A DNA stretch of 32,000 nt from Flammeovirga kamogawensis (GTDB lineage: Bacteria > Bacteroidota > Bacteroidia > Cytophagales > Flammeovirgaceae). Shown here piece by piece: positions 3,415 to 28,797 of the stretch. The stretch is taken from contig NZ_CP076130.1 in NCBI RefSeq assembly GCF_018736065.1, positions 584,633-616,632 of the forward strand, given 5' to 3'. The translations under genes were made by a program, and so were the position numbers. Under the pieces are notes generated by a model. The model did not search any database. It was not told the origin of the DNA and saw only the letters and a program-made list of their open reading frames with translations. Numbering within the stretch: the stretch's first letter is position 1; each line of letters starts with the position of its first letter.

Positions 3415-4497
3415 TTACAATACCATAATAGTTGATTTGGACGGTAGTAAACGCTGTTTATGAAAATTACTATCTGCTTTATTAGATTTAAATGGGAACT
3501 TCTTTTCTAAACCTATATAATATCTTAAAGATAGCGTATCACCTAGGTTAGGCTGAAACTTTGCAAAATATGTATTACTATAGCTATTCGCGGTAGAAGA
3601 AAACTCTCCATAGCCTTTAAAACTTTCATCGTTGAAAAACACGCCTAATCCATATTCAATTTTATACTTCTCGTTGTAAGTATATAAAAAAGTAGATGTA
3701 CTATTTGGCTTTTGAAGCTTCAATTCATCAGACGAAATATTACCCATTACCGTAACAACGTATACATCTTTTAAATTTACTCCTTTTACTTTCACTTCAC
3801 TATCATAATAAGACTTCCCTTCCCAAAGTTGGATAACTTCAGATAAAGCATAAGTAGCACCATCAATTATAATAGGTAAATAATCTACTTGTACTATTGT
3901 TCTATATTTTCCAGTTGATATCACTTCTATGTTTTCTATGGAATCCATTCTAAAAATTTCACCATTTTTTTGTAGCGCTAATTTACCACTTGTTACTTCT
4001 ATTCTTTTAGCTTTAAACGGGCTCATTCCTTTTAAATATACTTTTCTGAAAACGGCTTCTTTTTTGATCAATTGCTCACTAAAATTATGATGTATAAAAA
4101 TCTCTATATTGGCATTTGAGCACTTTACAACATCTTCTTTTATAGCTTTCTCCTTATTGTCAGTATACTTTTCATCGGTATTTATAAAGGTCAAAACAAG
4201 TTCTTCATTGGGCTTAAAATCTTGTTGAAAGGCTATTTCGTCCCACTTTCCATCGTTATCAAGGTCATCGTATTGAATCGGAATTCTGTTTTTATCGTCA
4301 TCCTGTACAATTAATAAACTCGAATTATTTAAAGCCAAGCATTTAGATTCAAGTTCTTGAAAAGATAAAATAATTGATACCCCTAAACGTTCAATATTTG
4401 CTTTATTTTTTAAAGTAATCTTAGAAGAATTAGAACATGCTGACACTATAAATACACTACATAATAGTAATAAACCCTTTTCAAAAATTCTAGACAT
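3415..4497 (-). CDS. Lipoprotein, DUF4861-like (family often next to uronate/KduI-type genes)
   Basis: Lipobox LLLLCSVFIVSAC|SNSS. The N-terminal segment ITLKNKANIERLGVSIILS ... IPIQYDDLDNDGKWDEIAFQQDFKPNEELVLTF resembles the DUF4861 N-terminus as I remember it. No catalytic motif is recognised. Confidence 0.45.
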   Translation of the reverse strand: MSRIFEKGLLLLCSVFIVSACSNSSKITLKNKANIERLGVSIILSFQELESKCLALNNSSLLIVQDDDKNRIPIQYDDLDNDGKWDEIAFQQDFKPNEELVLTFINTDEKYTDNKEKAIKEDVVKCSNANIEIFIHHNFSEQLIKKEAVFRKVYLKGMSPFKAKRIEVTSGKLALQKNGEIFRMDSIENIEVISTGKYRTIVQVDYLPIIIDGATYALSEVIQLWEGKSYYDSEVKVKGVNLKDVYVVTVMGNISSDELKLQKPNSTSTFLYTYNEKYKIEYGLGVFFNDESFKGYGEFSSTANSYSNTYFAKFQPNLGDTLSLRYYIGLEKKFPFKSNKADSNFHKQRLLPSKSTIMVL

Positions 4498-4817: not shown

Positions 4818-6686
4818 ATGAAAAGATTATTTACAATACTAATTGTTTATGGTTTACTCCTCCTTTCGGGGTGTGAACCCGAACAACAAACAAACGTTTT
4901 ACTACCTCCTAGCAACCTTTCTTATGTACATGTAATTGGTGCAGCAGAAAGTGGTCAAGGTTTTACTACTCCTCGACCTGCAGTACAAACATCTTCAACT
5001 CCAGCATTCCATTTAGTGAGTGTAAAAGGAGCCAATGGAGGTGAATATATTGATGGTGAAGTGACTTTAGATTCAGTTTCTGGTATAATAAGTTTAGCAA
5101 ATGGCCATCAGTTAATTGATGGAGATTATTATGCTTCGGTTAGCGTGAAAAATAATTATGGAGATACAGATTTTACAGATGTATTTCAATTCACAGTTCT
5201 TCCTTCAATTGTCTCAGGAATTACGTATACTCCAAATGAGTATACCATAATGAGAGGAGAAGAAGAATTGACAACTGAAGCACCAACTATTGAAGGTGGT
5301 TCTTCACCTTATACTTTCAAATCTGTCAATAATTCTTTCTTTGCAATAGATTCGGCAAGTGGTGTTGTTTCTTTACCACAAACGTCAGCATTAGATGCAG
5401 GTGTTTATAATTTATCGGTAACGGTTACCAATGCAACTAACGAAGATGTTGTTGCTTCTAACGCAATAAAGGTAAATTACGAGTCAGCTCCTTACGAAAT
5501 TACATATACAAACCCTACTCCTACTGTTCCGGTTGGACATACATTTATTATTGATGCTCCAGTTACTAAAGGAACAAATAAATTTGGAAATACAATTGCT
5601 TACTCTTTAGTAAACAATTATAATAACTTATTTACAATTAATCCTAGTACAGCTCTTATCACATTTACTGCAGACCCTACGTTGGTTAATTTAAATGATA
5701 CTTTTAAACTAGACGTTAAAGCAGTAAATGCTTACGGTGAGTATGTAAAAGAAAATGCGGTTAATGTTACAATTGTAGAAGCGAAAGATTGGGCTCCATA
5801 TAATTTAATGTATGATCCTAATTATAGTAAAGTTTTCCAAGGTGACAATTTTACTTCTGTAACTCCAATAATTGGTGGGTTAACAGATAACCTTATCTAT
5901 ACATTAGAAAATGATTTCGACATTTTTGCAATTGACGAAAATTCTGGTGTGCTTTCTTACCTTCCTCAAGTAGATCCATCTGCTGTAGAACCGGGTAATT
6001 ATGAGTTAAATATTGAAGCTACAAATCCATATGGTTTAACATTATTCCCAGATGCTTATTCTGTAGAAATTGTATCTTCTGAACCTGAAGTTATTTTTAC
6101 CGATGGATTTGAAGACATCCCTGCCGATGTTCCAGAATATGTAGAAAGTCCTACAGAATGTCGTTTTGGTAAATTCGTATCGTATAGTGTATTAGGTGTT
6201 CCTTCTATTAAAAGTGGCGATCAGTGGTTCCAAGGTTTTGACTACAGATCTTCTACACCAGGTGATAACGCCAATTACCCTTACAGACCGGGTATCTTTA
6301 TTGTTAATGGCAAACAAAAAGGAGAAGATTATCTCGTTTCTGATGAAATTGATTTCACGTATCATAATAATTTGAAATTGACATTAATAGCTGCGTCTAA
6401 GTACGGTACTGAAGCTGCCAATTCTGAAATAGAAATGTATGCTACTACTAATTTTACAGGAGATCCAACCACTACTACTTGGATTCAAATTGATATTCCT
6501 GCAACAAAAAACCTTAGCAATCAGAGTTTTGTTACTAATCCTATCATAGATTTTGATTTAAATCAATTAGCTGGTAAAAAAGTAAGGTTAGCTTTTAAAG
6601 TATATACTATTGGTGATTCTGAATCTAGTATGTCTAGAAACTATTGGATCAATACAATTCAAATTAGTGGCTCTAGATTCCGTTAA
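4818..6686 (+). CDS. Surface lipoprotein (SGBP-like): four cadherin/Ig-like repeats plus a C-terminal choice-of-anchor-J-like beta-sandwich module
   Basis: Lipobox LLLLSGC|EPEQ. There are four ~95-aa repeats with the recurring pattern Y(T/S)(L/F)...F.ID..SG.(V/I)S....(G)(V/N)Y.L.(V/I).(A/V).N. The C-terminal module runs VIFTDGFE...EDYLVSDEIDF...AGKKVRLAFKVYT...NYWINTIQISG. The gene sits directly upstream of susC. Confidence 0.7.
   Translation: MKRLFTILIVYGLLLLSGCEPEQQTNVLLPPSNLSYVHVIGAAESGQGFTTPRPAVQTSSTPAFHLVSVKGANGGEYIDGEVTLDSVSGIISLANGHQLIDGDYYASVSVKNNYGDTDFTDVFQFTVLPSIVSGITYTPNEYTIMRGEEELTTEAPTIEGGSSPYTFKSVNNSFFAIDSASGVVSLPQTSALDAGVYNLSVTVTNATNEDVVASNAIKVNYESAPYEITYTNPTPTVPVGHTFIIDAPVTKGTNKFGNTIAYSLVNNYNNLFTINPSTALITFTADPTLVNLNDTFKLDVKAVNAYGEYVKENAVNVTIVEAKDWAPYNLMYDPNYSKVFQGDNFTSVTPIIGGLTDNLIYTLENDFDIFAIDENSGVLSYLPQVDPSAVEPGNYELNIEATNPYGLTLFPDAYSVEIVSSEPEVIFTDGFEDIPADVPEYVESPTECRFGKFVSYSVLGVPSIKSGDQWFQGFDYRSSTPGDNANYPYRPGIFIVNGKQKGEDYLVSDEIDFTYHNNLKLTLIAASKYGTEAANSEIEMYATTNFTGDPTTTTWIQIDIPATKNLSNQSFVTNPIIDFDLNQLAGKKVRLAFKVYTIGDSESSMSRNYWINTIQISGSRFR
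4905..6074 (+). repeat. Four tandem cadherin/Ig-like protein repeats (aa ~30-127, 128-220, 221-320, 321-419)
   Basis: The repeats are visible by eye at the protein level, for example YTFKSVNNSFFAIDSASGVVSL..AGVYNLSVTVTN against YTLENDFDIFAIDENSGVLSY..PGNYELNIEATN. They are diverged at the DNA level. Confidence 0.65.
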
Positions 6687-6752: not shown

Positions 6753-9700
6753 ATGAAAAGCAAATTATTAACTAAAGGTCTGTATAGTGTCCTCTTCCTT
6801 TGGATGCTATCAATACCACTTACATACGGTCAGGGTGTTCCGAGTGTAAAAGGTGTTGTTTACGATGAAACTGGTGCTACATTACCAGGTGCTCAGGTTA
6901 TGATAAAAGGAACAGATAAAGGTGTAGTTACAGATTTTGATGGCAACTTCAAGTTTGTAAATGTTAGACCAACAGACGTCTTAATGATCTCTTATATTGG
7001 TTATGAAACCACTTTTATAAAAATTGGTACTCAAACAGAAGTCAAAGTAGCATTAACGTTAGACACAGAGGTCTTAGACGAAATTGTTGTTGTGGGTTAT
7101 GGTGTACAAGATAAAAGAGATGTTTCTGGTTCTATTGCCTCTGTAGATTCTGAAACTTTTGAAAACAATGCAGCAGCAAATTTTGATGAGATGCTATCTG
7201 GTCAAGTTGCAGGTATGTCTGCAAGTACAGGTGAAGGTACTCCAGGTGCTGCTGCTAATATCGTTATCCGTGGTGGTAATTCTATTACTGGCGATAACTC
7301 TCCATTGTATGTTGTTGATGGTTTTCCTATGGAAGATTTTGACCCCTCTTCTATCAGTCCTAGTGATATTAAAGGATTTGAAGTACTTAAAGATGCTTCT
7401 GCAACAGCTATCTATGGTTCTAGAGGTGCAAACGGTGTAATTATTATAACCACGAAAGGTGGTAAAGCAGGTAAATTTAAAGTTGGTTTAACACACTCTA
7501 CTGGTGTAGCTCTTGAGCCTAATGGACTTGCTTTAATGTCTCCTTATGAGTTTGTAAAAATGCAAGAAGAGATTGCGATTAGTAAAGGTGGTGATTTCTC
7601 TGAGCAGTTTTACAATACATGGGTAGACCCAGAATTGTACAAAGATATGGAGGCTATTGATTGGCAAGACCGTATTATGCAAGATGCCTTGTTTACAAAA
7701 ACAGGTGTAACATTTAGTGGTGGTAATGAGCAAACAAAACATTACACTTCTTTAAACTACATGAACCAAGATGGTGTACTTCTTAGCACTGGATATGAGA
7801 ACATTTCAGCAAGAATGAAAATTGACCATAAACTACATAACAACGGTAAAATTGGCATTAATTTAAACTATACTCACTCAGAAAGAGAAGGTTTAAATAA
7901 TAACAAAAAGGCACTTCAAGATGCTTGGAGATTACGTCCCGTAGATCCAATTAACCCTGATGGTAGAGAAAATGGTATTGATGAAAATAACGTAAATGAT
8001 AACCGTTACGATCCTGTTGCTACTTTAAATAATACCGAAAATAATTTAAATAGAAATGAGCTTCGTGCAATTGGTTACTACGAACAACCAATTAATAAGC
8101 ATTTAAAATTTAGAATTGCTGGTAGTGCTAAAACACTTAATGAGACGCAAACAATGTTTTTTGATGAAAACACCTATTCTGGCTCTAGAACTTCTAAAGG
8201 TGTAAACGGAAGTATTCTTAACAACGAATCAACTACATTAAAAAACACAAATACTGTTACCTATAACAACAAATGGGGTAAGCACAAATTACAAATGGTA
8301 GGTGGTGCAGAATTTTCACACTATCAAAGAGCTTATGTAAAAACGGTGGCAGAACAAATGATGCCTGGCACAGGAATAGAAGATATCAGACCTGGTACAT
8401 CAAAAACTTCTTACTCTGATTCTTATTATGAAGAAGATGGTTTAGCTTCTTACTTTGCTCGTGCAACCTACTCTTTTAAAGGAAAATACATTCTAACAGG
8501 TACTTACAGAATGGATGGATCGTCTAAATTTAGAGGAGACAATAAATACGGACACTTTCCCTCTTTAGGTGCTGCTTGGCGTATGGGTGATGAACCTTGG
8601 ATGAAAAGCCAAAATATATTTTCAGATTTCAAGTTTAGAGGTGGTTATGGTGTAACTGGTAATAACAGAATTCATGATTACGCTGCTTACTCTCAAATGT
8701 CAGTAGAAAATAATTCGGGATATATTCTTGAAGGTGAATATTACCCAGGTGTTGTTTATAATGAGTTAGCTTCTCAGGATTTGAAATGGGAAACAACTTT
8801 CCAATCTAACTTTGGTGTGGACATGGGCTTCTTAAACGATAAATTGAACGTAACTGTAGACCTTTATCAAAAGAGAACAAAAGACTTATTATTGAATGCA
8901 GAAGTACCAGAAAGTTCTGGGTTTAGTACTGTATTTATTAATGTAGGTGAGGTTCAAAATAGAGGGGTTGAATTTACTATCAGTAATGTAAATATTGATA
9001 GAAATGACTTCAAATGGACTTCTTCTTTAAACCTATCACACAACAAAAATGAAGTACTTGCCTTAAATAATGGACAAGATTATATCTTAAGTACACCAGG
9101 TCCTTGGTCTACAAGTTCACCTATTGATGAGTACATGTTTATTACTCAAGTAGGTCAGCCCGTTGGTCAGTTTTATGGTTTACAATATGAAGGACTCTAT
9201 TCAAACGATGATTTTTACTATATAGATGGCAAATATGAGCTAAAACCTGGTATTCCAAATAATGGTAATGAGGTTATCCCTGGTTCGCCTAAGTATAAAG
9301 ATGTGAATGGCGATGGTACTATAGACGAAAGAGATAGAACAGTAGTTGGAGATGCTACTCCATTGTTCTTTGGAGGTTTTACAAACACGGTAAAATACAA
9401 AAACTTTGATCTAGCCTTCACATTTACTTTCTCTTATGGTGGCGAATTAATTAATGCCAACAGAATAGAAAATGAATCGCCAGATGTAAACTTAAACATC
9501 AATTACTTTGAAGCTGTAGATAACCGTTATACAAAAGAAAATCCAAACGGTGATGTACATATTATTCGTGGAGATATCCAAGGAGAAAATCAAGTAGTAG
9601 GTAGACCTCCAAATGGTAATCAATTCTCTTCTCAATATGTAGAAGATGGATCTTACCTAAAACTTAAAAACATCACTTTAGGCTATACTTTCGACAAACG

Positions 9701-9893
9701 TATTGCTAAGAAAATAAGTGCAGAATCTATTAGAATTTACGCTTCTGCTCAAGATGTTTGGACACTTACTAACTACTCTGGGTTTGATCCTGAAGTTAGT
9801 GTAGGTGGTTACGGTGCCATGACACCTGGTTACGATTATTTGGCCTACCCAAGAGCCGCAACTTATGTAGTAGGTTTCAATATTAACTTCTAA
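6753..9893 (+). CDS. SusC/RagA-family TonB-dependent outer-membrane transporter
   Basis: 1046 aa with a signal peptide. It has a carboxypeptidase-regulatory-like N-domain (VKGVVYDETGATLPGAQVMIKGTDKGVVTDFDGNFKF), a plug region (DEIVVVGYGVQDKRDVSGSIASV) and a C-terminal ...VVGFNINF. SusD follows after only 4 nt. There is no STN/anti-sigma signalling domain at the N-terminus. Confidence 0.95.
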   Translation: MKSKLLTKGLYSVLFLWMLSIPLTYGQGVPSVKGVVYDETGATLPGAQVMIKGTDKGVVTDFDGNFKFVNVRPTDVLMISYIGYETTFIKIGTQTEVKVALTLDTEVLDEIVVVGYGVQDKRDVSGSIASVDSETFENNAAANFDEMLSGQVAGMSASTGEGTPGAAANIVIRGGNSITGDNSPLYVVDGFPMEDFDPSSISPSDIKGFEVLKDASATAIYGSRGANGVIIITTKGGKAGKFKVGLTHSTGVALEPNGLALMSPYEFVKMQEEIAISKGGDFSEQFYNTWVDPELYKDMEAIDWQDRIMQDALFTKTGVTFSGGNEQTKHYTSLNYMNQDGVLLSTGYENISARMKIDHKLHNNGKIGINLNYTHSEREGLNNNKKALQDAWRLRPVDPINPDGRENGIDENNVNDNRYDPVATLNNTENNLNRNELRAIGYYEQPINKHLKFRIAGSAKTLNETQTMFFDENTYSGSRTSKGVNGSILNNESTTLKNTNTVTYNNKWGKHKLQMVGGAEFSHYQRAYVKTVAEQMMPGTGIEDIRPGTSKTSYSDSYYEEDGLASYFARATYSFKGKYILTGTYRMDGSSKFRGDNKYGHFPSLGAAWRMGDEPWMKSQNIFSDFKFRGGYGVTGNNRIHDYAAYSQMSVENNSGYILEGEYYPGVVYNELASQDLKWETTFQSNFGVDMGFLNDKLNVTVDLYQKRTKDLLLNAEVPESSGFSTVFINVGEVQNRGVEFTISNVNIDRNDFKWTSSLNLSHNKNEVLALNNGQDYILSTPGPWSTSSPIDEYMFITQVGQPVGQFYGLQYEGLYSNDDFYYIDGKYELKPGIPNNGNEVIPGSPKYKDVNGDGTIDERDRTVVGDATPLFFGGFTNTVKYKNFDLAFTFTFSYGGELINANRIENESPDVNLNINYFEAVDNRYTKENPNGDVHIIRGDIQGENQVVGRPPNGNQFSSQYVEDGSYLKLKNITLGYTFDKRIAKKISAESIRIYASAQDVWTLTNYSGFDPEVSVGGYGAMTPGYDYLAYPRAATYVVGFNINF

Positions 9894-9897
9894 AAAA

Positions 9898-11592
9898 ATG
9901 AAAAGATATATAAATTGTATTTGGTTTGTATTGCTTGGTTTAGCAACAAGCTGTACTAGTCTTCTTGAAAAAGAGCCTATATCAACATCTAATGCAGAAA
10001 CGTTTTATAAAACAGTAGATGATGTTGAACTAACATTAATGGGTACATACAGTGCTTTACAAGCAAAAGGTACTTATAGTGGTAATATTCCAGTTTTAAT
10101 GAACACTGGAACAGATGAAGCCTTGTATTCAAGACCCTACAACAGTTGGACGACAAGTTACTATCAACATACAAGCTCAACGGAAGATATTCGTATGATT
10201 TGGAGAGATCTTTACTTTGGAATTTCTCAAGCAAATTCAACTTTAACAGGTTTATCTATTGTTGAAGGTGATGTTGAAAGAAAAACTGAAATTGAAGCTG
10301 AAGCAAGAACATTAAGGGCACTATTTTACTTAGACCTTGTTCGTTTCTTCGAGAATGTACCTCTTATATTAACGCCTACAACTGATATTGATAATTTGTA
10401 CCCATCACAAGCAGAACCAATGGAAGTGTACAAGCAAATTATTGAAGATTTACAGTTTGGTACTGCACATTTAAAATGGGGTGCTGATGTACAAGCAGGT
10501 AGAGTATCTAATGCTTTAGCGCATGGCGTATTAAGCAGAGTATACCTTGACCTTGCTGGTGAACAAATGGCCAAGTATAGTGATATTTCTAAAGATGAAT
10601 GTTACAAATTAGTAGTGGCTCACTCAGATTCTGTAATAAATAATGGATACCACACATTAAATAGTGATTACCCATTAATCTTTAAAAATCTAGCAAAAAA
10701 CATCTACGAAACTAGAGAAGTAATCTTCCAAATTGGTTTCCAAAACATGTTAGCAGATGGTTTATCAGAAGGTGGGCAACATGGTAATTTAAATGGTCCT
10801 TCTACCAACTTTAATAACCAAACAGAGCCTTTTGCATATGCTTTTCAGTTTACAACAATTATGCATGTAAATGCTTATGAGCATGCTAACATCCCTGATG
10901 TTAATAATGTAGGTTTAATGAAAGACACTATTTTGGACCAACGTTATACTTGGAATATTGGTAACTTTAAATACAAATTAGAAGATAGCAACGACCCTAC
11001 AAGTAAAAAAGCAGTGGCATTTTTGGCAACTGCAGAGAAAAATAAAAATGAGTACTACCCTGGTAAGTTCAGAAGGGTAAACCATAATTTAGTAGGATTT
11101 GATGCAGATGGTGAGCCTATCTATGACGTAAGTACATTAGAAGTTGGAGCTATTGCAAAAAATGAAACAAATATAGATTTCCCTTATATGCGTTATGCAG
11201 AAATTTTCTTAAATAAAGCAGAAGCAGAATATGAGTTAGGAAATTTAGATGCGGCAAAACTAAGTTTAAACAAGATCAGAAATAGAGCTGGTTTAGAAGA
11301 CTATGCTTTAAATAATGATCGCCTACAAAGTAGCATTCGTGACGAAAGAATGAGAGAACTTTGCTATGAAGGTTTCAGAAAGAAAGACCTAATTCGTTGG
11401 GGGATTTTAGCAGATAGATTACATGAGTTAAAAGAGCAAATGCTCCTATCAGATCTTGATCCAGCCTCTGGAAAATACTTCTTATTTAGAGCAAGTGATT
11501 ACGTTAAATATCCTAAGCATTCTGTATTGCCAATTCCAAATAGAGAGATAACAAACAACCCTAACCTAGTGCAACATACGTATTGGCAATAA
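9898..11592 (+). CDS. SusD/RagB-family nutrient-binding lipoprotein
   Basis: Lipobox LLGLATSC|TS. It is 564 aa with TPR-like helical content and the typical C-terminal MRYAEIFLNKAEAEYELGN and RDERMRELCYEGFRKKDLIRWG motifs. It is paired with the susC-like gene. Confidence 0.93.
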   Translation: MKRYINCIWFVLLGLATSCTSLLEKEPISTSNAETFYKTVDDVELTLMGTYSALQAKGTYSGNIPVLMNTGTDEALYSRPYNSWTTSYYQHTSSTEDIRMIWRDLYFGISQANSTLTGLSIVEGDVERKTEIEAEARTLRALFYLDLVRFFENVPLILTPTTDIDNLYPSQAEPMEVYKQIIEDLQFGTAHLKWGADVQAGRVSNALAHGVLSRVYLDLAGEQMAKYSDISKDECYKLVVAHSDSVINNGYHTLNSDYPLIFKNLAKNIYETREVIFQIGFQNMLADGLSEGGQHGNLNGPSTNFNNQTEPFAYAFQFTTIMHVNAYEHANIPDVNNVGLMKDTILDQRYTWNIGNFKYKLEDSNDPTSKKAVAFLATAEKNKNEYYPGKFRRVNHNLVGFDADGEPIYDVSTLEVGAIAKNETNIDFPYMRYAEIFLNKAEAEYELGNLDAAKLSLNKIRNRAGLEDYALNNDRLQSSIRDERMRELCYEGFRKKDLIRWGILADRLHELKEQMLLSDLDPASGKYFLFRASDYVKYPKHSVLPIPNREITNNPNLVQHTYWQ

Positions 11593-11628: not shown

Positions 11629-12357
11629 ATGAAAAGAAATATATACTTCCTCTTTGTTACTGTCATGATCGCTCTTTTGAGTAGTTCATGTCAGCAACAA
11701 GAAAAGGAAAACATTGAAAAAGGTACTGTTCGTTTATCAGATATTTTAGTAACAAACCACATGAGCAATGCGAAAGTTACTACTACAGATGGTTCTGATT
11801 TTAGAGTTGAATTAAGAACAGACCCTCAGATTCCAGGTGAATACCTCGGTACTGTTGCAGAAATTGAAGGAAAAGATATGCTTCTAAATGTTGGTGCATA
11901 TTATATCTATGTTGCATCTAAAGAGTTATCAGATACATTTATAGCTCCTAGCTTTACAGCTGCTCCATATTATGATGGAGTATCTGAAGAGGTTTTTGTT
12001 AAAGCAGGCGTAACCTACTCAGCTTCCGTTATCTGTAAAATTAGAAATACAAAAATTGGTATTTCTTATACTGATGCATACAAAACAAAATACCCTACAA
12101 GATCGGTAACTTTTACTACCGCTTCTGGAGAAAGTTTAGTTTTTAGTGGAGATACTGAAACTCAATTTGGGTTATTTGATCCAAGAGATGGTGGGTATAC
12201 TGCAGTTGTTTCTGCAACAGATGTAGACAATAAAACGATTACACAAACTTTCATGATCGAACAACCTCAAGCAAACGAATTCTATTCTATTTCAATTCAA
12301 TTACCAAGTAGTACAAGTGCTACTCTAGTTAAATCAATTGAAAAGTCAACTTTTTAA
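11629..12357 (+). CDS. PUL-associated lipoprotein (N-terminal module paralogous to the next gene; possibly DUF4493-like)
   Basis: Lipobox IALLSSSC|QQQ. KGTVRLSDILV...FRVELRTDP...APYYDGVSEEVFVKAGVTYSASVICKIRNTKIGISYTDAY aligns by eye with 12370..13818. Confidence 0.6.
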   Translation: MKRNIYFLFVTVMIALLSSSCQQQEKENIEKGTVRLSDILVTNHMSNAKVTTTDGSDFRVELRTDPQIPGEYLGTVAEIEGKDMLLNVGAYYIYVASKELSDTFIAPSFTAAPYYDGVSEEVFVKAGVTYSASVICKIRNTKIGISYTDAYKTKYPTRSVTFTTASGESLVFSGDTETQFGLFDPRDGGYTAVVSATDVDNKTITQTFMIEQPQANEFYSISIQLPSSTSATLVKSIEKSTF

Positions 12358-12369
12358 ACGTCTCTAAAA

Positions 12370-13818
12370 ATGAAATTCATAAAATATATCATTGGGTTCT
12401 TAGGAGTGGCGTTACTGTTCACTTCATGCGATACTACAAAAGAAGAAAGTGCACCTATCTCTAAAGGAAAAGGGGCTGTTCAACTTTTAGACGCTAAAGT
12501 TTTAGATTTACAATTTGGCAAACTTGTTCCCTCTTTTGATCTTGTAACAGATACCTTTACAGTAGAGTTAAGAACGGAACAACATGCAGAAGGAATTGAC
12601 TTAGGAAAAGTTTTCGAAATCAAAGGAAAGAAAATTGAAGTAGTTCCAGGTAATTATGTTCTTTGTGTTCATTCAAATAATAAATCAGTTGCTGCATTTG
12701 ATATGCCTTATTACGCAGGTTGGTCTTCTTCTTTTGATATTAAAGAAGGTGAATTATTCACAATAGATAATGTGATGACGCAAATTCAAAATATTGCCGT
12801 TACCATTGATTATACTACAGCAACTAAAAATACATTTTCAAACCGTGAGGTAATCATCAATACATTATCTAATCATTCTTTAGTGTACAGTAACCAAACG
12901 GGAACCGATGCTAAAATTGGTTATTTTGATGCTACAGATGTGCCTTTAACTGCAAACGTTCTATTATTAGACCAAGTAACTGGAAAAGAATACACTACAT
13001 CTTTTGCCATAGATGGTGCTAAAATGGAATATACTTACACAATTGATGTAAATACAACGACGCCAGAAGATACACAAGGTGCTGTAAAATTTAATGTTAC
13101 AATTTCTGACGAGATGAAAGAAATACCTTTAACGTGGGTTGTACAAGGAGAAAAAACAGTTATTTGGTCTGATGGTTTTAGTGAAATGGCGGAGGATGAA
13201 AATGTTGTTTTAGCAGATTTAGACTTAGATCAATCTACTGCAGATGGTCCATTTACTGTTGGTGGCTACACTGTGTATTCAGATTTTGGCGATGTAGGTT
13301 ACAATAAAAATACAGGAGATGTAGATACGAATAAATTGTCGGTATGGCTGTTTGGTCAGAATGGTGCTTATTCATCTACAGGTGAAAACGAAACTGTACC
13401 TGGATTCTATTTTAGATCTAACGAAGCTGCAAATAGAGATTGGTTAATCTCTCCAGAAATTGATTTAACCAACTGCTCTCAATTAGAATTTGAATATTAT
13501 GCCGTTACCCTATTTGGTGGCGATGATTCTAATACAAATATTCAGATTTCTCTTATTGATGCTACTGAATACAATGAAAATGACATCCCTAATTTACCTT
13601 GGGTGGAAATAGAAAATAACGAAGAAAAATCAAGCATTAAAACTGCTTTAAGGTTTGAAGGTGACATCCAAGCATTTGAAGGTAAAAAAGTACGCATTGC
13701 TTTTTACTCTCAATCTACTAATAAAGACGGTAGTTTTAATCCAGACTTTTTAGACAAACAATACATGTCAAGAGGTCGTCATCTTACTTCTTTATCTATC
13801 AAAGGCTACAAAAACTAG
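12370..13818 (+). CDS. PUL-associated lipoprotein: N-terminal module shared with 11629..12357 plus a C-terminal choice-of-anchor-J-like module
   Basis: Lipobox ALLFTSC|DTT. The N-terminal module reads KGAVQLLDAKV...FTVELRTEQ...MPYYAGWSSSFDIKEGELFTIDNVMTQIQNIAVTIDYTTA. The C-terminal module (aa 262-482) reads VIWSDGFSE...RDWLISPEIDLTNCSQLEFEYY...GKKVRIAFYSQS...HLTSLSIKG. Confidence 0.65.
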   Translation: MKFIKYIIGFLGVALLFTSCDTTKEESAPISKGKGAVQLLDAKVLDLQFGKLVPSFDLVTDTFTVELRTEQHAEGIDLGKVFEIKGKKIEVVPGNYVLCVHSNNKSVAAFDMPYYAGWSSSFDIKEGELFTIDNVMTQIQNIAVTIDYTTATKNTFSNREVIINTLSNHSLVYSNQTGTDAKIGYFDATDVPLTANVLLLDQVTGKEYTTSFAIDGAKMEYTYTIDVNTTTPEDTQGAVKFNVTISDEMKEIPLTWVVQGEKTVIWSDGFSEMAEDENVVLADLDLDQSTADGPFTVGGYTVYSDFGDVGYNKNTGDVDTNKLSVWLFGQNGAYSSTGENETVPGFYFRSNEAANRDWLISPEIDLTNCSQLEFEYYAVTLFGGDDSNTNIQISLIDATEYNENDIPNLPWVEIENNEEKSSIKTALRFEGDIQAFEGKKVRIAFYSQSTNKDGSFNPDFLDKQYMSRGRHLTSLSIKGYKN

Positions 13819-23600: not shown

Positions 23601-26204
23601 AAGGTGTCTATCACCTTGTATTGCGGTCTTTTCTAGTTTAGCAACCTCTGTTCCCGATCTACCCCAAATACGCATTCCAAATGTTCCAAACTCAGTACCT
23701 TTTCGTGGTATTTGATTATGGAAATACAATACAGTTCCATCTTCTCCTTGGCCTTCACCTCTTAAAACAATATTACTTTTACTGAAGTTAATGGTTACTA
23801 GATCTTCAGGATTTGTTAGAAAATCATATTGCCCTTTAGGAAGAAGTAGTACTCCACCTCCCGCTTTTCCCATTTCTTCAAATGCTGTATTTAACGCTAC
23901 TGCATCATCTTTATTATCATTTGGAAGTATACCAAAATCAACTGCATTATGCGTAACCGAAAGTGTTGGAATTTCAATTTCACTGTTATGATAACCAGCA
24001 TAGGAGAAGTTAGGTAAAATCGACTTATCTCCTTTCTCTTGAAAGTCTTTCCAAATTTCAGGAATCCATTCTGTCGCTACTGGTGGGGCAATACTTTCGG
24101 TAATAGTTACTGTGTATGGAAAGACGATTTCAGACTGGTCTACTGTATTTGTAACAACAATATTGAAAGTATATGTTCCAACAGATGGCTTCTCATTAAA
24201 TACAATTTCGTTACTTTCATTTATCGAAACTACTGCTGCGTCTTCTCCAGAAATAGAGTAGGTATATGTAGCATTTTCAGCTCCTCCTTCTGTAGTAAGT
24301 TCGCCTATTAAAAATGATTCTGTTATATCATCTTCATTAATTTCTTGCTGATCAGATGTATTTCCTCCAACTACTAAACTAATTGTTGAATTAATACGAA
24401 CCTGAACCTCTAAAGTAGTTATTTGTCCGTTATCTGCAGTTCCTTTTATTATTAATGATGCTGTAGGTTGCGTTGCCGCTTCTAGAGCTTCTGCTGTAGT
24501 TATTGTTCCTTCAGTAAGCGTAAACAAATTAGCATCATCACCTTCTAAAGTATACGTTACAGCTAAACCTTTGTCTTCTTCTACAATTGTGGCCACCTCA
24601 ATTCCTGCATCTCCTTCAGTAATTTCAGGGCTTTCTGGAGTTGTTGCAAATGCTGGCACAGGAATTACATCTACATTAAAAGAAGAAGCTGTTGCCCCGC
24701 CTGCGTTAGCTGCTGTAATTGTAAAACCAGATGGTCTTGTAAAATAATCAAGTGATTTATTTAAGATGACATCATTTCCACTTAATCGATAAGTTGGATT
24801 TGATGTGGTCGTTACATTACAAATTGGAAGGATCGTATTTTTGATATTTGTATCAGAATATGTTGCTCTAAATGCAACCCATAATTTTGTATTCCCTAAA
24901 ATATAAGCCGACAGGTCTAAATTTGTTACATTGATTCCTGATAAATCATCTAAATTAAAATTATCTAATTTCAAGAAGTCTGCAGAAACATTTTCTTTAA
25001 CAACTTGCCAACCTGAATGTGTTAATGGGTTTACAGGAGCTGTAGTACTCACTACAATTTCTAAAGAATTGTCTGACAAAGTTCCGTAGCGAGATGCTCC
25101 ACCATATTCTAAAACTAAGTTCGATATATCAGATACATCAATTGCTCTATCTAATAACAAATAAGATGTAAAAGCTTCTTTTGTCGCATCGGTACCATTT
25201 CCATTTTTTATTAATGGATAGTATACTTCTTCACCGTTCAATGTTATTTTTTGGGTACTCCAAATCTTAGTATATGATGCACCTTGGTATTCTGGAGTAA
25301 TAGACGAAGCATTTGTAAAACCATTTAAACCATCTGACGAAGGATTGGTTACATACGCTTTTTTATGAACTCCTGGAGTAAACTTATTTTCTACTAACGA
25401 TACTATTGTATTCGTTCCTGTATAAGATACTGTCCCTACAGTTGAAGTAGGGACAGTATTTTCTATTATTTCTGTTGCTGTGAATGCTAGATCTGTTGGT
25501 GCAGCTTCTGTCTCCTCATTCTCTACAGTTATTTTTACAGATGCAAGGTAAATTTGTCTTGATGTAAGTTCATTAAAAGATTCATATTTAAATGCAATCC
25601 ATATTTTCTCTTTACCTACTCCATAATCCGAGATACTCACCTCACCTTGGGTTAAACTTTCAAGGTCTAGAACATCATACCCTCCTGATGCATTTTTAAC
25701 TTGATTAAAAAAGATATCATCCACTTGAGTAGAGAGTACTTGCCAATTAGTATGGCCAGATAAATCAGACGTTGGGTCTGTATCTGTTACTAAAATTGAT
25801 ACATCTTGATGTGCATTTGACCCGAACCTATACAACCCGCTATAATTTAGCAGTATATCTTTTGCTTGGTCTACATTAATACCTTCAGTACATAAATAAG
25901 AAGTAAATGCTTTTTTCTGAGGTTTCACCGAAGGGAAATAGGTAAACTTAGATGCACCACTTTCACTTAAAATATTAATTCCAGAAACAGACCATGTTTG
26001 TAACCACATACTACCAGAATAGGTAGATGTTAAATAATTTGTTGATGAAGTGTAGCCATTTAATCCAGAAGAGATTTCTTCGTCTGCTTGTGGTTTCGAT
26101 TGTGTTCCTTGCTCAAAAGCAATTTCTGTTTGTGCAAAGCTTTCAAAGCATAAAGTTGTAAGGAAACTTAAAGCAAAAAAGCTAAATAGTAATTTCTTTT
26201 TCAT
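20697..26204 (-). CDS. Giant (1835 aa) mosaic T9SS cargo protein with a pectate-lyase-fold beta-helix core, a candidate extracellular polysaccharide lyase or hydrolase
   Basis: Signal peptide aa 1-25. Two choice-of-anchor-J-like modules (aa ~44-228 and ~285-466) are followed by cadherin/Ig-like repeats (aa ~470-703). The beta-helix core (aa ~711-1222) is paralogous to ORF 27180..28757. After it come a cadherin-like beta-sandwich (aa ~1223-1302), two DNRLRE-like modules (aa ~1309-1480 and ~1576-1745) and a T9SS CTD (aa ~1758-1835: VVLYPVPATTQLTL...SSGMYYVNIISDGEIILKKFIKQ). Confidence 0.8.
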   Translation of the reverse strand: MKKKLLFSFFALSFLTTLCFESFAQTEIAFEQGTQSKPQADEEISSGLNGYTSSTNYLTSTYSGSMWLQTWSVSGINILSESGASKFTYFPSVKPQKKAFTSYLCTEGINVDQAKDILLNYSGLYRFGSNAHQDVSILVTDTDPTSDLSGHTNWQVLSTQVDDIFFNQVKNASGGYDVLDLESLTQGEVSISDYGVGKEKIWIAFKYESFNELTSRQIYLASVKITVENEETEAAPTDLAFTATEIIENTVPTSTVGTVSYTGTNTIVSLVENKFTPGVHKKAYVTNPSSDGLNGFTNASSITPEYQGASYTKIWSTQKITLNGEEVYYPLIKNGNGTDATKEAFTSYLLLDRAIDVSDISNLVLEYGGASRYGTLSDNSLEIVVSTTAPVNPLTHSGWQVVKENVSADFLKLDNFNLDDLSGINVTNLDLSAYILGNTKLWVAFRATYSDTNIKNTILPICNVTTTSNPTYRLSGNDVILNKSLDYFTRPSGFTITAANAGGATASSFNVDVIPVPAFATTPESPEITEGDAGIEVATIVEEDKGLAVTYTLEGDDANLFTLTEGTITTAEALEAATQPTASLIIKGTADNGQITTLEVQVRINSTISLVVGGNTSDQQEINEDDITESFLIGELTTEGGAENATYTYSISGEDAAVVSINESNEIVFNEKPSVGTYTFNIVVTNTVDQSEIVFPYTVTITESIAPPVATEWIPEIWKDFQEKGDKSILPNFSYAGYHNSEIEIPTLSVTHNAVDFGILPNDNKDDAVALNTAFEEMGKAGGGVLLLPKGQYDFLTNPEDLVTINFSKSNIVLRGEGQGEDGTVLYFHNQIPRKGTEFGTFGMRIWGRSGTEVAKLEKTAIQGDRHLIVDTETALKAGDFILITVKNAEGDDMASRKMVFPLAKDDRWSSFNRSTAFQWSVEVINVNGKHISIKEPLPIDLETRYETVISTTNYTTETGIENLRFSSAWSGEYKHHGKNEDGSQEDEKTVYEMDYGWCALQLSKLSNSWVKDVTFENFTWDLNTSLSKGLTLQGINVIGKDGHHGIKVNGYGNVLKDAKISAFRTHPIGGTGIMVGNVFTNIELGDYDGTVDFHGGGFPAANLIENVNNIRCEGSGAMENMPNSGIANVFWNLEVPNEISAIENEFFYAWWMALLGQEEQSYLMYPQSKVIGVYNPEASNVQIAGSRADRATSGIYVEGLNKKGVYPASVFQQQLTDRLAKGTLVFGISIDGKQIEEFSPETENYFVAHTSTEAVMPTLIVDTDASNTVTITPKHSVNGSTHQIEVSSADGISKVYTIHYGFSNTENKTYASRKDVMVRGGSNSSKNYFDNSKIEIVAATNSTYLREALLSFNVSSLMNLDTLTEVNLNITGRAYKGTSVSYEVVAAAVDFDETTVTFDAKPEGLFKRVGFIELYQSDEDQLISIPLNLGEISEADSVQTFIIREITNILDTDGKAIFTSIYRSSVVANAPYISAFQFKPKQVELITSAEISSATYSIIHPTEATEMGEIEGIDIAQSKAQFLEDVIAPEGGSITVIAPSTHQIVADVYAGCIVESISQDGNLVYQYKVIAKENFAADIIDDTYVTSQYPTENFATSNYLEIGSNDKATYLKFDLSVMESVDKVMLKLYADKTNMSEDSDINVFGSTATSWFANEVSYSTTLGTSGSDLVADDAAILAENTIPSMEHNGNQIDYYFDVSDYVKAALEQGSKEVTFKVTGSNWVRFSSSYSVDEQVPELIFEGIYRENGPTSIGDVWNADVVLYPVPATTQLTLKMTTVKEGTKAVFFNGMGQQVMSRDIKAQETVIRLDTLSSGMYYVNIISDGEIILKKFIKQ
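20700..20933 (-). other. T9SS type-A C-terminal sorting domain of the giant protein
   Basis: NADVVLYPVPATTQLTLKMTTVKEGTKAVFFNGMGQQVMSRDIKAQETVIRLDTLSSGMYYVNIISDGEIILKKFIKQ. Confidence 0.8.
22539..24074 (-). other. Beta-helix (Pectate_lyase_3-like) catalytic-core region of the giant protein
   Basis: LPNFSYAGYHNSEIEIP, AVDFGILPNDNKDDAVALNTAF, GGVLLLPKGQYDF, NIVLRGEGQGEDGTVLYF, YKHHG, YGWCALQLSKLSNSWVKDVTFENF and GHHGIKV all align motif-by-motif with ORF 27180..28757. Confidence 0.7.
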
Positions 26205-27179: not shown

Positions 27180-28757
27180 TTAAAAAAACAAACCTTCTTT
27201 TTTCAAATCTTTGATCCAATCAGGTAACTCACCTAATCTTAATTCTAACTGTGCCTCAAATAAAGATGTTGTTTTAACGGGTGTACCTACAGATTCTAAT
27301 ACATCAATTGTAGAAGCATCAAATGATGCACCTTCCTGTCCATGGAATCCAACTACAATAGGAGGAATAACTTTCCAAAACCAAGTATCTTTTGCCCAAA
27401 AAGTAAAATTCTGCTCTGCCGCATCTGTCTCCTTAAAGTTCCAAATTACTAAGTTTCTTAAATGGTTTGGAAGGTTTTGTCTAGCTCCACCACCTCTGCC
27501 TGCAAAGAATCCACCTTCGACACAATCAAAAAGTGTGTTTCTTGGTTGTGAGGCATGAGATTCAAAAGATGTATTCGGTGTCCATCGTGTTCTCCAAATA
27601 ACATTATTAGATGATGATCCGCCAGATACTCCATAAGAATGCCATACACCTGCCTGGTCATCACAATTTGCAATTAAAACACCCATAGATGCCGTCATAG
27701 AAATTGCATTATGCCCTGGGTTACCTTCGATAACACAATTTAATGCCGTAACTGCCGCAGATTTAGTTATGTGTACAGATCTACTAACATCTTTAAATCT
27801 ACAATCTTGAACCCAAGAATCTGTTACACCATTTAGATTTAATATACTCCAACCTCCATCATGTACAGCATCTTTATGATGCTTAAATTCATCTTTCCAA
27901 TTTCCTTCAAACGCTAAATGTTCAAAACCAATATGCTCTAAATGTGCATAAGATTTTAACGTCCACTCGTGTTTTGATTGTACATCATAATGAATTGGTT
28001 CTTCAAAAATTACATTCTTTCCTTCTATTGCCTTAACAATGTGTTTTTCGTTTACAATCACACCTTTGTTTAGAATGGTTTTCCAAGAAGGATCGCACTT
28101 AGCAGGGGCTAATTCATAATTTACTAAATCTGGAGCATTGTTTTTAACAGACAATAGAACCCAATCTCCTACTTTTATCTTATTAGTATTATCTACTTCA
28201 ACAGAAAAAGTTTCTCTCTTTGCATTTCTGCTAACGTTAGCAAGAAACTTATCAGCTCCTTTAGGTACTGTTTTAATTGCAAAAGGTGCTGTCCATAATT
28301 TTGAAGGATCTGCAGCCTTTAAATCTAAATCAAAAAATAAAATAGATCCATCCGTTCCTTTTCCTTCTCCTCTAAATACAATATTAGAAGATCTTACAGT
28401 GATAAGGTCTGTCTTGTCTTTCTTAGTATTGATGTAATACTTTCCTTTAGGGAAAAAGATAATCCCTTCTCCATTTTGTTCTGCTGCTGCAATTGCTTTT
28501 TGAATCGCTTTTTTATCTGATTTTTTATCATTTGGTTTTGCTCCAAAATCTGTAACATCAAATATTTTGTAGTCAGCTACAGGTATACCCACTTCGCTAT
28601 ATTCATATCCTACAAAAGAAAAGTTGGGTAACTTTGGTGTTTCTCCTGTCTCTTGGCATGCTTTGTACTCTTTCCAAACTTCACTTTCTTGTGCAAAAAC
28701 TGAAGATATAGAAACACTCAAAGTTGCTAGTAATGCTATAAGTAATTTCTTGTTCAT
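27180..28757 (-). CDS. Secreted right-handed beta-helix enzyme (Pectate_lyase_3-like N-terminus; DUF4955/PL29-like by memory), candidate polysaccharide lyase
   Basis: The likely start is ATG 28757 (MNKKLLIALLATLSVSISSVFAQ signal peptide). VTDFGAKPNDKKSDKKAIQKAIAAAEQNGEGIIFFPKGKYYI is the classic start of pectate-lyase-superfamily beta-helices. The rest is paralogous to aa ~711-1222 of the giant protein. Confidence 0.7.
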   Translation of the reverse strand: MNKKLLIALLATLSVSISSVFAQESEVWKEYKACQETGETPKLPNFSFVGYEYSEVGIPVADYKIFDVTDFGAKPNDKKSDKKAIQKAIAAAEQNGEGIIFFPKGKYYINTKKDKTDLITVRSSNIVFRGEGKGTDGSILFFDLDLKAADPSKLWTAPFAIKTVPKGADKFLANVSRNAKRETFSVEVDNTNKIKVGDWVLLSVKNNAPDLVNYELAPAKCDPSWKTILNKGVIVNEKHIVKAIEGKNVIFEEPIHYDVQSKHEWTLKSYAHLEHIGFEHLAFEGNWKDEFKHHKDAVHDGGWSILNLNGVTDSWVQDCRFKDVSRSVHITKSAAVTALNCVIEGNPGHNAISMTASMGVLIANCDDQAGVWHSYGVSGGSSSNNVIWRTRWTPNTSFESHASQPRNTLFDCVEGGFFAGRGGGARQNLPNHLRNLVIWNFKETDAAEQNFTFWAKDTWFWKVIPPIVVGFHGQEGASFDASTIDVLESVGTPVKTTSLFEAQLELRLGELPDWIKDLKKEGLFF

Positions 28758-28797
28758 TTCTTTCTTATATATTTGATTGTCTTTATTTATAGTCACT

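Follow-up and report, generated by a model that had tools for sequence, protein, structure and literature searches.

A 32,000-nucleotide stretch of the Flammeovirga kamogawensis genome (contig NZ_CP076130.1, positions 584,633 to 616,632 of the forward strand; hereafter the window) contains a polysaccharide-utilisation locus with a plus-strand arm and a minus-strand arm, in which we found four copies of a beta-sandwich module distributed over three proteins. Copies A and B form the C-terminal ends of two lipoproteins (P0002 and P0003), and copies C and D are placed in tandem near the N-terminus of a giant PL29-like lyase (P0001), a type IX secretion system (T9SS) cargo (Table 1). Judged from their sequences, all four segments are diverged members of one known extracellular jelly-roll beta-sandwich superfamily, which includes the choice-of-anchor J (COAJ), DUF5017, Cleaved_Adhesin, and MAM-like domains. 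Based on these sequence comparisons and on analogy with related loci, we favor the reading that the modules are non-catalytic ligand-binding heads for the polysaccharide of this locus, similar to carbohydrate-binding modules (CBMs) or surface glycan-binding proteins (SGBPs), with a probability of roughly 55-60%. No fifth copy was found within the window.

A first-pass annotation of this DNA had proposed that the four copies share an ordered set of four motifs. The four sets of coordinates given there translate as described, and three of the motifs occupy the same columns in alignments made with MAFFT and hhalign, namely, the second (DWLISPEIDL or AFTSYL..I.V), the third (a strand with a Trp residue), and the fourth (GKKVRIAF or EKIWIAF). 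For C and D, the first motif was placed in the wrong register. The DGF strand of A (VIFTDGFE) and B (VIWSDGFS), which corresponds to the canonical ExF first strand, aligns with EIAFEQG in C (aa 27-33) and ENKFTPG in D (aa 272-278), both of which fall outside the coordinates of the first-pass annotation. The GLNG(Y/F)T segment that was taken there for a degenerate DGF motif is the second strand in these two copies. An AlphaFold2 model of C has its first strand at aa 27-31. Based on the register of the first strand in the alignments and in this model, C begins at approximately aa 26, right after the signal peptide, and D at approximately aa 270, such that both start ~15-18 residues earlier than annotated.

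For direct comparison, pairs of segments were examined by BLASTP, Smith-Waterman alignment with 500 shuffles, and phmmer. The similarity between C and D is the strongest (BLASTP E 5e-22 with 30% identity over 169 aa; z 27.7; phmmer domain E ~2e-15), and these two copies are best explained as a tandem duplicate that has drifted past all curated models. The similarity between A and B is also significant (BLASTP E 1.4e-10; z 15.4; genome-wide phmmer E 3e-7). Among the comparisons that connect a lipoprotein with the giant protein, A-D is weakly significant when one segment is compared with the other (BLASTP E 1.7e-5; z 7.3; Gumbel p 5e-5) and is lost in the comparison of whole proteins at E<=1e-3, B-D is marginal (BLASTP E 0.025; z 2.8), and A-C and B-C are not significant by BLASTP and remain at chance level in the shuffles (z 1.1 and 0.4, respectively). 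The copies are mutually only 20-30% identical or less, and outside of its own pair D has its best match in A, and C in another protein, P0004. The proposal of one module in four places thus holds directly for A-B and C-D and weakly for A-D. With A-C and B-C at chance and A-D weak, the link between the lipoproteins and the giant protein rests mainly on profiles.

The NCBIfam model NF038128 has a curated cut-off of 30 bits, and A (26.6 bits; E 6e-6) and B (27.5 bits; E 3e-6) score 2.5-3.4 bits below it. For C and D, no match to any Pfam or NCBIfam model was found at E<=10. When a hidden Markov model (HMM) was built from 32 bona fide COAJ domains that score above the cut-off, all from other genomes, hmmsearch gave 36 bits (E 2.2e-9) for A and 42 bits (E 3e-11) for B. 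Comparison with the same 32 domains by hhalign gave probabilities of 95.8% for A, 96.9% for B, and 91.6% (E 8e-7) for the alignment of C and D. The hhalign score of the C/D alignment was 45, compared with a mean of 11.9 and a maximum of 19.9 among 200 column shuffles and with 12 for the reversed alignment; as negative controls, the CBM96 copies and the Ig-like regions that these proteins also contain stayed below 2% probability. Furthermore, when an HMM of A and B was iterated over the open reading frames (ORFs) of the genome together with four relatives from databases, all bona fide COAJ domains in the host genome were recruited. With the speed filters turned off, the A+B profile places the giant protein 12th in the genome, directly behind all bona fide COAJ proteins (E 4.4e-7; 27.5 bits for C and 19.6 bits for D), and the next match in the genome has an E of 0.012. 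Homology to COAJ at the superfamily level is thus nearly certain for A and B on sequence grounds and very probable for C and D. The attribution to COAJ domains in the first-pass annotation stands at this level, being clear for A and B against the bona fide profile even though both are below the curated cut-off, and available for C and D only by profile methods.

The AlphaFold2 model of C, made with a family alignment of 36 sequences (C, D, A, B, and the 32 COAJ domains), is a beta-sandwich with a mean predicted local distance difference test (pLDDT) score of 77.6 and a predicted TM-score of 0.80; since the COAJ alignment guided this model, it indicates compatibility with the fold rather than giving independent proof. 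In Foldseek, the model has binding jelly-rolls as structural neighbours, namely, the ligand-binding domains of Eph receptors, CBM4-2, a LAST-MAM domain, and the gingipain K2 and K3 domains (E 1.6e-4 and TM ~0.4 for the latter two), with TM-scores that are mostly ~0.4-0.65. Searched against the PDB, the profile of the 36-sequence family finds gingipain K1-K3 (E 1e-15) and 8JIY (E 1.4e-8), followed by the MAM chains of InhA, RPTPmu, and neuropilin (E 3e-6 to 9e-3), reelin, and EndoD.

According to these relationships, the feature is real but ordinary: it belongs to a known and named, functionally little-studied fold and is not a new kind of domain. The description of the module as uncharacterised in the first-pass annotation is therefore overstated, because the fold is named (COAJ, DUF5017), structures of relatives are available (gingipain K1-K3, 8JIY, and the MAM domain of InhA), and the family is not specific to this locus. 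The family names themselves overlap. Pfam DUF5017 matches coincide with COAJ matches at the same places in six loci, one COAJ domain of the host genome is called Cleaved_Adhesin by Pfam, and NF038128 is grouped by CDD with the DUF5017 superfamily. Among the individual models, PF16409 (DUF5017) has no match in A-D at E<=10, PF07675 (Cleaved_Adhesin) has no match in any of the four, and among the MAM models (PF00629 and PF20773) the only match is that of InhA-like_MAM to A, which is weak (E 0.075). By sequence score, A and B fall in a COAJ subgroup whose closest relatives lie outside the host genome. Each of the two scores better against outside domains (P0005 and DUF6359 proteins) than against the other or against C/D. 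P0005, the nearest outside relative of both, matches DUF5017 at 33.9 bits. A locus-specific clade of the four copies was considered and rejected for the same reason, with A and B each nearer to outside COAJ/DUF5017 domains.

Compared with the canonical COAJ domain of NF038128, the copies have the ExF, GW, DWLISPxIDL, V.VST, W, and DLSxY.Gk.v.iAF elements and the last strand in the same order. They differ in that the canonical terminal I-D-D/N strand is replaced, with an SR..-type strand in A, B, and C, and in that A and B are located at the C-terminus of lipoproteins without a C-terminal sorting signal. In keeping with COAJ domains, which occur on extracellular proteins with alternative sorting or anchoring signals, the giant protein has a type A T9SS C-terminal domain (CTD), P0002 and P0003 have lipoprotein signal peptides, and the other COAJ proteins of the host include a T9SS adhesin. 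The K1-K3 domains of the Porphyromonas gingivalis Lys-gingipain (PF07675; PDB 4ITC, 3KM5, and 3M1H) are, among proteins of solved structure, the best sequence matches to the family profile and, similar to C and D, are non-catalytic modules on a T9SS cargo, but they belong to a protease rather than to a glycan-utilisation locus. These gingipain domains act as haemagglutinin and protein adhesins. PDB 8JIY is a COAJ-like module of 241 residues from a 'DUF4955 domain-containing protein', which is the annotation given to PL29-type proteins, and thus shows the same pairing of enzyme and module as the giant protein; it differs in being absent from the 50 highest-ranking structures that Foldseek gave for the C model and in being unreached by the profile of the four copies alone. 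Our guess is that 8JIY may be the CBM105 of the Segatella oris PL29 enzyme. Literature searches for 8JIY and for DUF4955 returned nothing.

The placement of the modules within the three proteins is the basis for the functional reading. The N-terminus of P0002 has the lipobox LSGC followed by an acidic stretch, and P0003 has the lipobox FTSC followed by DTTKEE. In view of the lipoprotein export signals of Bacteroidota, acidic residues at this place are consistent with surface exposure of both proteins. Residues 51-321 of P0002 match positions 51-350 of the SGBP_BT4661-like model, which has 731 positions, and there is also a Cadherin match; P0002 matches only the N-terminal stalk part of the BT4661-type SGBP model, with copy A taking the distal position. 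In P0003, a DUF4493 domain (E 8e-24) precedes copy B, and the N-terminal part is a paralogue of the neighbouring ORF 11629 (33% identity; E 2e-20). Both lipoproteins would be lipid-anchored at the N-terminus, with an Ig-like or DUF4493 stalk that carries the module at the far C-terminal end.

The domain order of P0001 is reversed in this respect. From the N-terminus, it has a signal peptide, C, D, a region with one weak Y_Y_Y match that we read as Ig-like, the PL29-like lyase, two CBM96/DNRLRE modules, and the type A CTD. The matches outside C and D are BT_3328_fam (E 1.5e-36 over model positions 273-830), DUF4955, two CBM96, and Por_Secre_tail. Since the BT3328 model is matched only from position 273, C, D, and the Ig-like-read region occupy the place of the N-terminal region of BT3328. 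We take BT3328 to be a lipoprotein. In the giant protein, the C-terminal T9SS domain would be the attachment end, leaving the two modules at the far N-terminal end. The anchor is therefore at the end opposite to the module in all three proteins, and the module would form the membrane-distal tip. From this position, the modules may capture the polysaccharide of the locus, which is probably an anionic, sulfated, glycosaminoglycan (GAG)-like uronic-acid polymer, and hold it for cleavage by the PL29-like domain, after which the fragments would be handed to SusCD.

This membrane-distal placement and the literature precedent for DUF5017 in GAG loci together make glycan capture plausible. In the Bacteroides thetaiotaomicron locus for chondroitin sulfate (CS), dermatan sulfate (DS), as well as hyaluronic acid (HA), BT3329 and BT3330 bind CS, DS, and HA by isothermal titration calorimetry, and an N-terminal region of ~300 aa is common to BT3329 and the PL29 lyase BT3328 (Ndeh et al., PMC6994673). 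Sharing of a module between lyase and SGBP in a PL29 locus is thus already documented, though with a different region. A DUF5017 protein encoded in the B. thetaiotaomicron GAG locus is reported to be an SGBP, and the Segatella oris PL29 enzyme to carry a new CBM, CBM105 (bioRxiv 10.64898/2026.10.07.757250). The likeness to the B. thetaiotaomicron locus is that surface lipoproteins beside SusCD and a PL29 lyase bind the substrate, that one of them has a region common with the lyase, and that DUF5017 overlaps COAJ domains and is matched by the protein most closely related to A and B. The differences are that A-D lack a PF16409 match and that BT3328 is described as a surface lyase (PMC6994673) whereas the enzyme here is a T9SS cargo. 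Should C/D or A/B prove to bind a sulfated polysaccharide of marine origin, the COAJ/DUF5017 fold would be extended as a CBM-type family and the modules could provide glycan probes.

The same precedent can be read in terms of contacts between proteins. The module may be a docking or oligomerisation unit with MAM-like homotypic contacts that assembles the lyase and the two lipoproteins around SusCD without binding glycan, given that MAM and gingipain adhesin domains, which are classic protein-interaction modules, are among the sequence and fold neighbours, and that BT3328, BT3329, and BT3330 co-precipitate at the cell surface, with the lyase having a region common with one SGBP (PMC6994673). 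We consider this decidedly unlikely, as copies with at most 20-30% identity would be poor partners for homotypic recognition, A and B are nearer to outside domains than to C/D, and the B. thetaiotaomicron proteins showed no interaction in vitro (PMC6994673). A specific version, in which the N-terminal tandem pair of the lyase latches onto like modules at the tips of the SGBP-type lipoproteins and so joins a SusCD 'utilisome' without a lipid anchor of its own, is very improbable on the present sequence data. If true, it would be a way of coupling a T9SS cargo to a Sus-type importer, and we know of no earlier description of such coupling by docking.

Several results weigh against the modules being glycan-binding heads of one family. 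Some of these concern the inclusion of C and D. In addition to the dependence of the C model on its guiding alignment, a single-sequence AlphaFold2 run on aa 26-485 gave a pLDDT of 30, and the profile of the four copies alone reaches no PDB chain (best E 0.2, for the InhA MAM domain). The strictly bona fide COAJ HMM gives only E 0.022 for the giant protein, which is not significant, with both weak domain matches falling on C and D in the correct register. Together with the chance-level A-C and B-C comparisons, the absence of curated-model matches to C/D, and a C/D profile that alone found no PDB relative, this non-significant value would be expected if C/D were an unrelated beta-sandwich that acquired a COAJ-like strand pattern by convergence, leaving two pairs only. 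Such convergence is nonetheless quite improbable: the hhalign comparison (92%; E 8e-7) lies far outside the 200 shuffles, the A/B-subfamily profile ranks the giant protein directly behind all true members with C and D in the correct register, A-D reaches z 7.3, and other beta-sandwiches of the same proteins fail as controls.

The remaining points concern the ligand. The other COAJ domains of the host genome are found in nuclease/DNA-uptake-type loci and a cadherin-like adhesin, which means that glycan binding does not follow from membership of the family itself. In the host genome, the bona fide COAJ domains occur in two paralogous loci that encode DUF5689, DUF6359, LTD, and endonuclease proteins alongside Exo_endo_phos genes; the third setting is a 2435-aa cadherin-like T9SS adhesin, in which the domain is the one that Pfam calls Cleaved_Adhesin. 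Moreover, natural transformation in Riemerella requires a DUF5689/COAJ protein (PMC8459023), and together with the nuclease-type settings in the host this indicates that the ligands of the family are diverse. All four modules are acidic (pI 4.2-5.0), which disfavours simple electrostatic binding of a polyanion; since the rest of these proteins is acidic as well, net charge is uninformative and gives polyanion binding no support.

The common region of BT3328 and BT3329 was interpreted by the authors of that study as a spacer and not as a binding site (PMC6994673), and by extension the modules here may be structural spacers or stability domains without a specific ligand, representing generic 'beads' of secreted Bacteroidota proteins. 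The orphan-like, fast sequence drift of C/D would fit this possibility, as would the two CBM96 modules that the giant protein already has and the free CBM96 gene next door. Such a role is unlikely, given that all four modules are at the distal tip and not in a membrane-proximal stalk position, and that separate Ig-like or DUF4493 stalk domains are already present in both lipoproteins. Glycan-binding heads thus remain our preferred reading of the modules, and with it likely substrate-capture tips of the locus are identified. The assignment gives a sound annotation to ~820 residues that had no curated-model name, spread over three proteins from a locus that probably serves the utilisation of a GAG-like or sulfated uronic-acid polymer; no new mechanism is revealed by it.

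The divergence of C/D is apparent in wider searches. A full HMMER search with the C/D profile against 1.84 billion representative proteins returned only the query and P0008, a repeat-summed artefact, and a search of 60 related genomes, eight of which belong to the same genus, likewise gave no C/D relative. Word-indexed homologue searches with the N-terminus of the giant protein and with copy A returned the query alone, and only noise was obtained when C/D, A, and B were each searched singly against the sequences of the PDB. The C/D pair shows how far the fold can drift beyond sequence models and may be useful for improving the NF038128 and DUF5017 models. As a practical observation, the default speed filters of HMMER dropped the giant protein from the iterative search, and it surfaced only with --max (unfiltered E 4.4e-7); diverged beta-sandwich copies such as C/D can escape routine iterative searches.

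The catalytic part of the giant protein has a similarly sparse distribution. No orthologue of its PL29-like part was found in the same 60 genomes, and the closest relative is the neighbouring 538-aa paralogue with 30% identity, leaving no orthologue for comparison. DUF4955 was found in only four of 401 sampled Bacteroidota genomes, with the host included, such that the PL29-like/DUF4955 catalytic domain is rare. All of these occurrences are frames of 521-538 aa, which have no room for extra modules. A scan of related loci for PL29 enzymes that carry COAJ modules yielded none.

The host genome is 6.97 Mb in four contigs with ~33% GC. The plus-strand arm of the locus consists of genes for a major facilitator superfamily (MFS) transporter, a sulfatase, a DUF6250 protein, ORF 4818, a SusC-like and a SusD-like protein, ORF 11629 (DUF4493), ORF 12370, and a 162-aa ORF. 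The minus-strand arm consists of a GH88-like gene, the 1835-aa giant, the free CBM96 gene, the 538-aa PL29-like gene, a second sulfatase, and esterase-type genes. In its gene content, the locus is similar to the GAG loci known from B. thetaiotaomicron and Segatella oris, in which PL29, GH88, sulfatases, DUF4861, and a DUF5017 SGBP occur together.

Table 1. Coordinates of the four module copies and of other features of the locus, numbered from the first position of the window.
Feature	Coordinates	Strand	Remarks
DUF4861 gene	3415..4497	-	Placed among the plus-strand arm genes
ORF 4818 (P0002)	4818..6686	+	622-aa lipoprotein; Ig/cadherin-like stalk, then copy A
Copy A	6069..6683	+	C-terminal COAJ-like module of P0002, aa ~418-622; BLAST match to B begins at aa 418
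SusC-like and SusD-like pair	6753..11592	+	Defines the uptake arm; Plug, CarboxypepD_reg; SusD_RagB
ORF 11629	11629..12357	+	DUF4493 lipoprotein
ORF 12370 (P0003)	12370..13818	+	482-aa lipoprotein; DUF4493, then copy B; SGBP position downstream of SusD
Copy B	13138..13815	+	C-terminal COAJ-like module of P0003, aa ~257-482
P0001	20697..26204	-	Giant 1835-aa T9SS cargo; Pfam and NCBIfam matches
Copy D	24795..25397	-	Second N-terminal module of giant lyase, aa ~270-470
C-D linker	25398..25514	-	~39 aa with many Thr, Glu, and Ala residues; separates the aligned domain cores
Copy C	25515..26129	-	First N-terminal module of giant lyase, aa ~26-230; directly after signal peptide
Signal peptide of P0001	26129..26204	-	aa 1-25
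Neighbouring PL29-like paralogue	27180..28796	-	538 aa

The signal peptide of P0001 ends with SFA and is followed by Gln, and module C begins immediately, without a linker. In T9SS cargo, cleavage commonly leaves a Gln at the N-terminus, and this residue is cyclised to pyroglutamate. Downstream of SusD, ORF 11629 and ORF 12370 are adjacent DUF4493 lipoprotein genes, and only the second acquired a COAJ-like head.

The locus sits on contig C3 (639,981 bases) of a four-contig assembly that is 100% complete. This contig may represent a secondary replicon or a megaplasmid, and that would agree with the absence of the locus from those further species of the genus that the search covered. The two paralogous loci with bona fide COAJ domains, L002 (contig C3: 182000-201000) and L003 (contig C2: 587000-606000), have the same gene order on different contigs. 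Each of these contains Exo_endo_phos genes, a 906-aa protein without a Pfam match, a protein of ~1040 aa (DUF5689, two DUF6359, two COAJ, and LTD), and a protein of ~705-730 aa that combines DUF5689 and COAJ with a nuclease (Endonuclease I in one locus and Endonuclease_NS in the other). Both loci resemble the DUF5689/COAJ gene for transformation in Riemerella (PMC8459023) and may be systems for extracellular DNA capture that include nucleases.

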